A stretch of 13,508 bases of DNA, from the IMG/VR virus record IMGVR_UViG_2537562192_000015. One strand, written 5' to 3'. Below are positions 9,001-12,000 of this stretch, one piece after another (within the stretch, counting starts at the first letter, position 1; every line of letters starts with the position of its first letter). The stretch is from a virus. Its lineage: Duplodnaviria; Heunggongvirae; Uroviricota; Caudoviricetes. The position numbers were made by a program.

Positions 9001-12000
9001 CTGACAGAACGGGAGATTGCTGAAGCGGAACAGGTAGCAACCATCAACGTTAAAACCGGAGAGGTGGAATCATGACAGCACAGATTGCAGCTTACGGGCG
9101 GCTGGTGGACGACCCGCAGGAAAAACAGACCAGCAAAGGAACACCAATGGCACTGGCGCGTATGGCGGTATCTTTGCCATGCAGTCAGGCACAGGACGGA
9201 CAGGCGACGTTATGGCTATCAGTCCTGGCATTTGGTAAGCAAGCCGACGCGCTGGCGAGACATGAAAAAGGCGACCTTATCAGCGTGGCGGGTAACATGC
9301 AGATCAGCCAGTGGACCGGACAGAACGGAGAAATACGGCAGGGCTGGCAGGTTATCGCTGACAGCGTAATCAGTGCCCGTTCGGCGCGTCCTGGCGGGAA
9401 GCGGGGGCAACAGGGGAAGGCGACCGAAGCACTGGAAAGAGCAAAACGACAGACCGGACAGCAGGGAAATCAGCCACCAGCGGGAGGTGATGACCCGTTC
9501 TCTGACGATATTCCGTTCTGAATGACAGGAGCACAACATGAACCAGCAGACCACACAACAGGACCAGACCACACGTAAACCATCACGGCGCATACCGTGG
9601 CAGCACATGACAAAAGAGCAACGAAAAAACCACAGACGAATAAATCGAATTGCGGAATACTGGCCTGAGCTGTTTGGGACAGAGAATATAAAACCCCTGA
9701 AGGCTGGCATAATACGTGATGTGCTTGAGGACGCTAAATCACGGGAGTTGCCACTTGCTACAGGTGTATTACGCGGCGCATTAACCTCACACCTTCACAC
9801 GACGCGATACCTTAAGGCGATTATTGCTGGTGGCCCACGGTACGACCTGAACGGGCAACCTTGCGGCGAAGTCACGGAGAAAGAGAAAGCAGCAGCCAGC
9901 GAACAACTGATGTGGAGGCTGGAGCAGATAAAACAGCAAAACATCCAGTGGCAGGATACGGGAGGTGGTGAGAGTGATAACAGACAGCGTGGCACAGAAA
10001 CTTGAGGAGCGTGGTTTATGGCGACGTGCGGCGACCCGATGCTCTGACGTCCTTCTTCACGCAGAAACGGACAGGGAGCGCGAGGAAGCTGCCAGACGTC
10101 GGGCGATATGCATCATTAAATCCCGTCGTATGCCTGAGCAGTTCGTCACCTTTGGCGATGTGAAAAAGGCCGCAGACAGAACGCTGAAAGAGATGGGGAT
10201 TAATCCGCAGGATGAATGGAAAAATTACAGCTTCAGTGATGCAGGCGACGATTTAGCGCTATCGTGATACGTATCTCATCGCCGTATTTGCTCAATTATC
10301 GCGATTCGCTATAATCACCACCGAAAGGCCGTTGATGGTGTTCTCCGCAGGCAACGGGAGCCTCGCCGAATGAAGCCAGCCAGCGGCTTTTCGGCACTCA
10401 TTTTGATGTGTACTTGTCACACACATCGGGATGAGTGAACGACGAAAACATCACGGTGATTTCGTCATGCCGCGATAAGAATGCGCCTCTTTGGGCAACT
10501 GGAGCCCTCTGTACAGCGGGTTATTGCGGCAAAGTTGTGATAAAAACGCGCCTCTTTGAGCAATTGAAGCTCACTGTAAAGCGGCTTATCACAGCAGGCT
10601 GTAACGGGCGTTCATCTTCTGGCAACTGAAGCCACCTGTACAGAGACCCGTTACGGCTGACCCTGAAGGATTTCGCCCCGTGCAATTGAAGCACCCAGCG
10701 GAGTTATTCAGGGTTTTTTATTGCCCGTCCACCAGCACCACATCTGTAGCATTGATGCGTATACATTCGCCGTCAATTGCACCGTTCCGGCCCTCACCGT
10801 CACGCACCACAACAGAATGACCAGGCAGGCCATAACGCGCCACCTTTCGACGAACACCATCACCTGTTCCCTCACGCCGCTCATACACGTTAACCCGCTC
10901 CAGAAGACCGTCACGGACCATCGCTTCAAGTGTGCGCCTTGTTGATTCGAGCTGATATCGGTTGTTGTGTGAATCTATGCCATACAGCAGGTAAGCCACA
11001 CCGGAGACATCAAACGGCGGGTTACCAATTTCACCTCTGACCCACGACAGATTGTCAGGAGTGAAGTAACTGAGGATCTCTTTTTTGTATTGCGTCAGTC
11101 TCATAGTGACCTTTCTTGTTGTAGGATGAATCCCTCATACAATAAGCCATAAGGCAAATTTTGAAAGGACAGAATCGGCGGGGTACAGATGATACGTGAT
11201 GACAAGGCTGAAGCGCTGGAGAATAGCGGCCTCTGGCGGCGTGCTGCTGAACGCTGGGGAGAATTGTTCAGACAGGCAAAAAGTGATGAAGAGAGGCACT
11301 ATATTACCCAACGAAGGGCACAATGTACGGCAAAAGCCACCAGACCAAAAACAACAGAGTGGGGGCATGTATGCGCCGTCAGGGCAGCAGCGACCAGAAC
11401 GCTTAAAGATATGGGGATTGACCAGAAAAAAGAAGATCCTTTACGGGGCACGAAGTACAGGGGTGAAACAGGGCGAAGAGACGGAAGTTAATATGGACAC
11501 AATAACTGATAAAAAAGCCGAACAACTGGAATCTCAGGGACTATGGCGAAGAGCCGCCGCTCGTTGGCTTGACGTAATGAAAGAGGCCCACACCGATCCG
11601 CAGCGAGAGCATATAGCCAGACGGCGGGAAATATGCCTTGCGAACTTCAGGATGCTGTAAATAAGACTGTTGACGATATGGGAATCAGACGGGATCGGCG
11701 ACATTACGGGTTATGGAAATAACAGCCAGGTAAATTGGTGAATATACGGCAGGCTGCAATCAGAGCCGAACATAGCGGCCTCCGTCACCATTATCAGACA
11801 GTAGCGGTAGTCCTTCCATCACAGCAAAATGCTACCCACTTCACAGCCCCTTAGAAGCCTCTTCGATGGGGTGAAAAATCCCTGAAAAAATGCGCAAAAA
11901 ACTGCGCAAATCGATCATAAAACCGATCACAAAATCGATCACACAGACCAGCAGAGCAAAGCCAGATATGACGTGGCTTGTAGGGGGAAAAGCCACCGGA

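Follow-up and report, generated by a model that had tools for sequence, protein, structure and literature searches.

A minimal FinO-domain protein in a PICI-like island of Shiga toxin-producing Escherichia coli and its candidate RNA partner

FinO-domain proteins form the third major class of bacterial small RNA (sRNA) chaperones, and FinO, FopA and PcnR make compact, tractable protein–RNA pairs that control the spread or copy number of their element. Each of these systems (FinO–FinP/traJ, FopA–Inc/repZ and PcnR–repR) acts on RNA of its own element, and terminator hairpins that carry a 3′ tail are what FinO domains recognise (PMC9977716, PMC7491321, PMC8053102). Here we analyse a finO-like gene in a stretch of 13,508 nucleotides filed as the virus record IMGVR_UViG_2537562192_000015 (Caudoviricetes), hereafter the window, which is 100% identical to chromosomes of human isolates of Escherichia coli that produce Shiga toxin (STEC) and which, judged by its gene content, is an island at a tRNA-Gly resembling the phage-inducible chromosomal islands (PICIs). 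To our knowledge, the satellite-borne clade to which its product belongs has not been studied so far, and a literature search for a functional study of a satellite-borne FinO-domain member found none. A preliminary description of the window had assigned the gene to the FinO family and placed it in an operon with SSB and PerC homologs on a satellite-like island. Our analysis bears these points out, and it suggests, with confidence evenly divided for and against, that this minimal protein acts on a terminator-bearing structured RNA encoded by the island itself.

The gene lies at 9538..10005 on the plus strand, opens with ATG and has 155 codons for a minimal FinO-domain protein of 155 aa; a Shine-Dalgarno motif, AGGAG, stands at 9527-9531, and the gene starts 16 nt after the stop codon of a gene for a single-stranded DNA-binding protein (SSB). 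Profile, sequence, fold and structure searches all agree on the domain. The ProQ/FinO profile PF04352 matches the product with 82.1 bits (E=3.6e-23; Pfam gathering score 27) over residues 31-135, equivalent to profile positions 4-107 of 109, whereas the preliminary description had named a profile search empty of FinO-domain matches as the result that would speak against its assignment. A phmmer search of PDB sequences returned the N-terminal domain (NTD) of ProQ (3.9e-12), FinO (1.9e-10), RocC (6e-10) and NMB1681 (2e-8), and nothing beyond these. With 29 homologues as input, AlphaFold2 gave a model that is confident for residues ~21-140 (predicted local distance difference test, pLDDT, 78-96 in the core), with residues 1-17 and 142-155 disordered. 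When this model was compared with the PDB using Foldseek, the top 27 matches were all FinO-domain structures (RocC, FinO, NMB1681, Lpp1663 and ProQ-NTD), with target-normalised template modelling (TM) scores up to 0.84 and with the RocC entry including a form bound to terminator RNA; outside FinO-domain structures nothing was significant (remaining matches E>2). Sequence and predicted fold together confirm the open reading frame (ORF) as coding for a genuine FinO-domain protein, for which RNA binding would be expected.

The product is predicted to open with a disordered, basic N-terminus rich in Gln and Thr (residues 1-24), after which come a basic helix (26-41), the FinO core, which runs to ~140, and an acidic tail that varies. 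The counterparts of E. coli ProQ K35, G37, D41, R58, R69, Y70, R80, D82 and G85 are kept, while ProQ K54 and R62 are replaced by Thr; the NTD part of this pairwise alignment with ProQ reproduces the alignment from the PDB search. Tyr70 and Arg80 are cited as essential to RNA binding by ProQ (PMC7491321). In the alignment of the 29 homologues, K55, G57, D61, R79, R90, Y91 and R101 of the island protein are invariant or nearly so, and a PLK-G motif is conserved as well. An earlier claim that the C-terminal 40 residues are Gln-rich and unlike ProQ survives in part. Gln makes up 7/40 of these residues (18% against 10% overall), a moderate enrichment that had been overstated, and the final helix of the FinO domain takes up residues 116-136, which align with ProQ, leaving only ~136-155 outside the domain. 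This tail is acidic, predicted to be disordered and variable in length, with alleles of 138, 148 and 155 aa, and the DNA encoding it overlaps the start of the next gene, perC, by 32 nt. The true difference from ProQ at the C-terminus, as the alignment has it, is the missing ProQ linker and C-terminal domain: the alignment stops at ProQ residue ~118, and nothing in the island protein matches ProQ 130-232.

Comparison with characterised systems places the island protein apart from all of them: on present alignments it is not ProQ, FinO or FopA and is roughly equidistant (30–35% identity) from all characterised members. Its identity to the ProQ NTD is 35% (E=3e-16), with a score of 54.2 bits against the ProQ equivalog NF003434 (NCBIfam; cutoff 127), and it differs from ProQ in length (155 against 232 aa) and in being accessory, present in ~4% of E. 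coli genomes, where ProQ is core. With FinO of F-like plasmids it shares the fold (Foldseek match to 1dvo, E=2.4e-6), ~35% identity, a basic N-terminal helix ahead of the core and a gene position at the 3′ end of a long mobile-element operon. It is nevertheless shorter than FinO (155 against 186 aa), scores 54.6 bits against the FinO subfamily NF010317 (NCBIfam; cutoff 136) and is never plasmid-borne, and the island has no tra operon, FinP or traJ. FopA, which acts on the Inc antisense RNA and repZ of pCol1B9/IncI, likewise has one FinO domain preceded by a basic N-terminal extension, lacks the ProQ-type C-terminal domain and is encoded on a mobile element, and the Tyr/Arg pair essential to RNA binding is conserved between the two (PMC7491321). 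However, identity to FopA is 30% over 125 residues (E=3e-9) and confined to the FinO domain, the N-terminal region of FopA has ~75 residues against ~30, the island gene sits on a chromosomal island, and an Inc-like replication-control RNA was not detected in it; FopA membership was rejected on this identity, and a plasmid origin on the absence of plasmid copies. The likeness to PcnR considered here is one of logic: this ProQ/FinO-family protein of IncI2 plasmids binds repR mRNA at its first stem-loop, so that the element's own replication gene is controlled post-transcriptionally (PMC8053102). PcnR is plasmid-borne with a replication-initiator leader as its target; upstream of the island primase gene, no leader structure of that kind turned up. 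The best structural matches are to Legionella RocC (7rgt and 7rgu, target TM 0.8, 31–34% identity), and NMB1681, the minimal ProQ of Neisseria, is both a structural match (3mw6) and a minimal single-domain protein; these are chromosomal proteins of other bacterial classes, and RocC has a long C-terminal extension and a trans-acting partner, RocR.

A search of 1.84 billion representative sequences returned 1427 clusters at E≤1e-3, among which only the protein's own cluster fell below 1e-30 and about a dozen sister clusters stood at 39–46% identity. RefSeq lists the product (WP_001076061.1) as a "ProQ/FINO family protein"; each of the 108 homologous clusters bears that name or "prop effector". 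Two papers mention island genes of this type in passing. The 2010 genome paper on enteroaggregative E. coli 042 describes an 8-kb island at tRNA-Pro in which a gene "similar to proQ" adjoins a PerC-like gene (PMC2808357).

The gene is under purifying selection. Against the O157 allele (WP_001076063.1; locus L002, 12001-12417) the ratio of nonsynonymous to synonymous divergence (dN/dS) is 0.25 at dS 0.49, and across alleles dN/dS is 0.2–0.3 at dS 0.5–1.1, reaching 1.07 against another allele. Flanking genes, small ORFs included, have dS of only 0.03–0.09 (SSB 0.09, PerC 0.07), and since finO dS lies far above that of SSB and PerC, we infer that old alleles were swapped in by recombination, not that the gene evolves fast. 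Locally, finO stands out as a hot spot of divergence, and its alleles appear mosaic. That the gene is inert cargo or a decaying remnant without current function would fit the decay seen elsewhere in the island (antA/B and icd pseudogenes and a DUF4222 remnant) and the optional presence of FinO among sibling islands. We consider it very improbable, in view of an intact ORF with a good Shine-Dalgarno motif, constraint maintained despite high dS, contact residues conserved in 29 diverse homologues and a gene position conserved across genera.

Distribution and neighbourhood were studied in 86 loci with a homologue, taken from IMG/VR, species-representative genomes and assemblies, and in 79 loci fetched through the primase; a scan of genome contigs gave nothing with a single-protein query and five loci with an alignment-based query. 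DNA-level relatives of finO occur in 226/5,426 complete E. coli genomes (116 with ≥80% coverage), and all 252 E. coli copies are chromosomal, with none on plasmids; close alleles occur in strains of O157:H7, O145:H28, O111:H8 and O103:H2. Plasmids hold only FinO proper (~35% identity), one 52% "plasmid" match being a 4.8-Mb chromosome filed as a plasmid, and sequenced phages hold only distant relatives, such as gp26 of Sodalis phage phiSG1 (41%). The gene order int, AlpA, (Ash/antirepressor), primase, (SSB), FinO extends from Escherichia to Salmonella, Serratia and Rosenbergiella at 41–52% protein identity, and FinO lies near the 3′ end of a rightward replication operon across ~85 related islands. 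PerC stands directly downstream of FinO in 52/85 assessable loci (61%), almost always with a 4-nt ATGA stop/start overlap; elsewhere FinO is followed by a TraR/DksA-like zinc-finger ORF, another small ORF or a second FinO. In Salmonella-type islands (L006 10695-10907, L007 10599-10811), for example, the zinc-finger ORF is coupled to FinO instead of PerC, and in L082 (6827-7731) two FinO genes stand in tandem. FinO and PerC are associated in the dereplicated set fetched through the primase (5/7 vs. 6/35, Fisher p=0.0085).

In FinO-negative siblings the same slot is taken by a major capsid protein and a decoration protein. Counts for the two groups, which were fetched by different queries, are 4 loci with both FinO and capsid, 44 with FinO only, 22 with capsid only and 7 with neither (p=1e-9). 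Sibling islands (L088-L166 compared with L013-L087) show two right-arm types that seldom mix, one with a major capsid protein of E or HK97 type plus decoration protein D and one with FinO/PerC. FinO is an optional regulatory gene of the right arm, not a core replication gene, and the core life cycle does not depend on it, because siblings with near-identical C4 RNA regions and the same SSB lack it. A shorter FinO-domain gene (114 aa, 52% identical) occurs in a different island type (L003/L004, ~10690-12360), where it adjoins an H-NS paralogue, a dGTPase-like gene and inovirus Gp2-like genes, without C4 RNA, SSB or PerC.

Directly downstream of the finO–perC pair lies a candidate structured RNA of seven consecutive hairpins (10321..10720, plus strand; whole element 10288-10725), identified by folding, covariation and strand tests. 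A sigma-70-like promoter candidate read from the sequence, TTGCTC-N16-TATAAT, precedes it (10288..10316, plus strand) and does not vary among six island variants. Folded as the plus strand, 10268-10725 reaches -187 kcal/mol against -141±6 for shuffled sequences (z=-7.70), compared with z=-3.58 for the minus strand. Five of the seven hairpins have the apical motif GGC-AAYUGRA-GCC, and four are paralogous ~60-nt units whose basal stems vary in sequence yet remain complementary; the terminal hairpin (10660-10714) is followed by UUUUUUAUUG, an end of the intrinsic-terminator type. RNAalifold on six variants, which are fairly similar sequences and the only ones on which covariation rests, gave 140 consensus pairs, 7 of them with compensatory double changes. 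In this alignment 98.2% of cells are paired and the covariation score exceeds 500/500 shuffles, while slid registers reach ~40% pairing. An independent strand test on the alignment gave -183 kcal/mol for the plus strand against -145 for the reverse complement, every variant folding 17–27 kcal/mol better on the plus strand.

The array region is 88% identical at the nucleotide level between the window and O157, and finO 82%. The full array was found in 113 genomes, against 116 with this FinO and 114 with an unbroken finO–perC–array block, and variant L170 keeps the array though the adjacent minus-strand ORF and two further PerC genes are missing. No Rfam family matches the array, and the RNA candidate is undescribed. 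Pas sRNAs of prophages in enterohaemorrhagic E. coli (EHEC) were considered as relatives and rejected, being Hfq-type sRNAs in a different context. In other island types a strong canonical intrinsic terminator follows the pair of finO and its partner gene. FinO consistently adjoins a predicted terminator-type 3′ end, the ligand class of the FinO family. A generic structured RNA after all FinO genes was rejected: such structure follows about half of the sequence types, mostly as ordinary strong terminators.

Because of family precedent, conserved contact residues and gene position, we propose the following as the likely mechanism. The protein would be made as the next-to-last product of a long rightward replication operon, its gene usually translationally coupled to that of a small transcription modulator, which in this island would be PerC. 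By analogy with FinO, FopA and PcnR, it would grip the base and 3′ tail of a terminator-type hairpin on an island-made RNA, with contacts made by a concave face (K55, R79, R90, Y91 and R101) and assisted by the basic helix 26-41. It may then shield the bound RNA from 3′ exonucleases and promote its pairing with a complementary structured RNA. The candidate ligand in this island would be the ~400-nt hairpin-array RNA, starting 20–55 nt after perC and ending in a hairpin and U-run, to which we infer that FinO binds, while in other island types it would be the strong intrinsic terminator right after the gene pair.

Several observations weigh against this proposal. The -35 element of the promoter candidate is weak (3/6 matches) and under the threshold of the scanner, and FinO is optional in the island family. 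Four fetched loci, all of the window's own subgroup, were the only ones in which a motif scan detected the array; plain co-inheritance may therefore account for its linkage to FinO, and about half of the other FinO island types have no unusual structure downstream. Strand-specific structure could in principle belong to single-stranded DNA instead of RNA, and the case as a whole rests on sequence and predicted fold.

FinO could accordingly work on DNA, as an accessory binder of single-stranded or structured DNA in island replication together with SSB, the array being a single-strand initiation or replication site. SSB does lie directly upstream of FinO in 35/80 loci, and the strand-specific hairpins could form in single-stranded DNA too. 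Yet SSB is also present in nearly all FinO-negative siblings; its adjacency is therefore positional, SSB being part of the replication module, and a functional SSB–FinO pair was rejected. Furthermore, the structural matches are all RNA-binding FinO domains, including RocC with terminator RNA, the array ends in a hairpin and T-run of the transcription-terminator type, and the likely origin is elsewhere, in the AT-rich gap after the primase gene (8041-8505). A DNA-directed role appears far-fetched on this evidence.

Instead of the array, the RNA partner could be the C4-type antisense RNA at 4893..4980 on the plus strand (RF01695, 72.9 bits; Rfam gathering score 45), which heads the rightward operon ending in finO–perC. 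The protein would stabilise this immunity RNA and speed its pairing with leader targets of the icd–primase–SSB–finO operon, giving negative feedback on replication, with FinP/traJ or Inc/repZ logic built into P4/P1-type immunity. The known FinO proteins of mobile elements do all take part in the antisense control of a gene for replication or transfer (PMC9977716, PMC8053102). C4 RNA was found in the other four PICI-type FinO loci tested and is absent from the unrelated island type with the shorter FinO, and an a1/b1-like target lies upstream of it in the window. Conversely, FinO-negative siblings (L105, L111, L153 and L154) keep C4 regions 88% identical to that of the window, so C4 does not need FinO, and icd and antA/B downstream of C4 are pseudogenes here. 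C4/CI RNAs are moreover processed RNAs not known to carry the terminator U-tail preferred by FinO domains. We therefore demoted C4 as a FinO-specific partner to a rival that we think unlikely. The a1/b1 target matches, together with an isrK-like match, are sub-threshold and precede C4 at 4776-4867. A 59-nt direct repeat (4689-4747 and 5042-5100, 90% identical) brackets C4 and contains a ribosome-binding site and start codon, and the repeat and the pseudogene Icd-like ORFs suggest a rearranged immunity region (4689-5100, plus strand). An antisense sRNA over the primase start, read from a minus-strand "terminator" at 5816-5797, was also rejected: it is a coding remnant of DUF4222. The 77-nt block around it (5792-5868) is conserved across 43 loci and is what is left of the 5′ end of a DUF4222 gene, of which sibling islands have an intact copy upstream of the primase; the palindrome of the block mimics a minus-strand terminator.

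Two sequence links connect the island to Stx-converting phages. Hairpin unit 1 of the array (10469..10530, plus strand) is homologous, in antisense, to a 62-nt segment within the ORF of an 8.4-kb LPD38/LPD5 gene at the end of the late operon of Stx2a-converting prophages. Identity is 87% (TW14359 Stx2a prophage, L172 3577-3638), or 98% for island variant L014, with ~300 further genomes at 87%, and the match includes a compensatory change from CG/CG to UU/AA. Because the segment lies on the opposite strand, array RNA made from the plus strand would run antisense to the late transcript of the phage. Among the members of a phage collection, only Stx-converting phages carry the unit, in 175 records that include 933W (NC_000924 54591-54652), VT2-Sakai and phi24B. 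Beyond this segment, island and prophage resemble each other only in the Q antiterminator (88% at the amino acid and 90% at the nucleotide level in the Stx2a prophage); island Q is 88–90% identical to many Q proteins of Stx1- and Stx2-converting phages, and could in principle act on Stx-phage late promoters.

These links are compatible with a protein that acts mainly in trans on RNAs from outside the island, whether host sRNAs and mRNA 3′ ends, as a mimic or competitor of ProQ, or transcripts of a helper phage, and that on induction of the island would re-program the cell or the helper. Similarity to the ProQ NTD with RNA-contact residues kept, the co-encoded trans-acting regulators (three PerC genes and the Q antiterminator), the array unit antisense to a Stx-phage late gene and the readiness with which FinO/ProQ proteins adopt foreign RNAs such as RepX and RocRp (PMC9977716) all favour this possibility. 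However, characterised mobile-element FinO proteins have narrow, mostly self-encoded targets (PMC7491321, PMC9977716), and the island protein lacks the ProQ C-terminal domain; we regard a mainly trans-acting protein as improbable. One may also speculate, at somewhat greater risk, that the Q933-like antiterminator, the array, whose first repeat is antisense to the LPD38/LPD5 gene, and the FinO chaperone form a three-part toolkit aimed at Stx phages as helper or target. FinO would stabilise the array and promote its hairpin-to-hairpin pairing with the late transcript of the phage, in FinP/traJ geometry, tuning expression of helper late genes and possibly Stx2. If this doubtful scenario were true, a phage satellite would be using its own RNA chaperone and an antisense RNA on helper late genes, possibly on Stx2. 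That the protein controls the island, the host or a helper phage at the post-transcriptional level, as the preliminary description put forward, is consistent with the linked structured RNA candidate and with the Stx-phage links, and may be retained at that strength.

The remaining genes agree with the satellite-like island recognised earlier. With its flanks (locus L001), the island starts at a tRNA-Gly, 165 nt upstream of the integrase gene, between actS and the ETT2 type III secretion locus. At its left end lies the gene for a P4-type tyrosine integrase (40..1254, plus strand; RefSeq annotation), followed in the canonical PICI position by an AlpA-like helix-turn-helix (HTH) regulator (2305..2502, plus strand; RefSeq "helix-turn-helix transcriptional regulator") that is 65% identical to an ORF of L005 carrying PF05930 (Phage_AlpA). 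RefSeq further annotates Rha, pseudogenes for AntA/B and Icd-like proteins, and three small ORFs before the primase. The replication module comprises a DUF927 primase/helicase-type gene (5902..8040, plus strand; PF06048, 139 bits) and the SSB gene (9072..9521, plus strand; PF00436, 55 bits; TIGR00621, 63.6 bits), with two small ORFs between them. The PerC-family gene at 9974..10267 (plus strand; PF06069, 89 bits) completes the operon with SSB and FinO, an arrangement that recurs in many related islands, and no convincing plus-strand terminator was found between 4753 and 10267. One minus-strand ORF separates the hairpin region from two further PerC-family genes (RefSeq; 11189..11491 and 11493..11660, plus strand; PF06069, 81 and 56 bits), and a Q-family antiterminator gene lies at 12844..13236 (plus strand; PF06530, 170 bits). 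RefSeq annotation and scanned ORFs revealed no capsid, tail or lysis genes in the ~13.5-kb island.

This content has the architecture described for Gram-negative PICIs (PMC6092414), with int, alpA and primase in one orientation at a specific site and structural genes absent. The island shares int, alpA, (antirepressor/Ash), primase and PerC in ~13–15 kb, without lysis or tail genes, with EcCICFT073 and EcCIMP1 (PMC11773190, PMC6092414), the latter a PICI that was verified by experiment and that has int, AlpA, an antirepressor, Ash, a primase and PerC (PMC11773190). They differ in that no FinO gene is described in those PICIs and in that the present subgroup has a Q antiterminator and no capsid or packaging genes. 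With P4-like satellites only the C4/CI-type RNA and Icd-like remnants are common, and RefSeq annotation and scanned ORFs contained no psu–delta–sid module. No convincing att repeats marking the right boundary of the island were found. The gap at 8041-8505, AT-rich, without similarity to any other fetched locus and with a spurious sub-threshold microRNA match in Rfam, is probably an island-specific replication origin. The tRNA-Gly site adjoins the ETT2 locus (L001 8802-8875 and 24158-31508); in another strain a different FinO-bearing island variant (L005) occupies this site, and the O157 version of the island sits between yicC and dinD; literature searches under the locus names of the O157 island returned nothing relevant. 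Two of the three PerC paralogues have sub-threshold NCBIfam matches to ANR (AraC negative regulator; E=9e-5 and 1e-3), and one PICI PerC-like protein represses, not activates, LEE1 (PMC11773190).

The island FinO clade is present in ~2–4% of complete E. coli genomes, with close members in major EHEC serotypes, and its gene is coupled genetically to PerC-family regulators of the LEE virulence island. The adjoining array RNA candidate makes the proposed mechanism directly testable. Should FinO not bind the array RNA, the protein would be one more uncharacterised member of PF04352. Should it bind, no RNA chaperone together with its RNA would have been described from a phage satellite before, and the pair might add a further level to the control of Stx phages.

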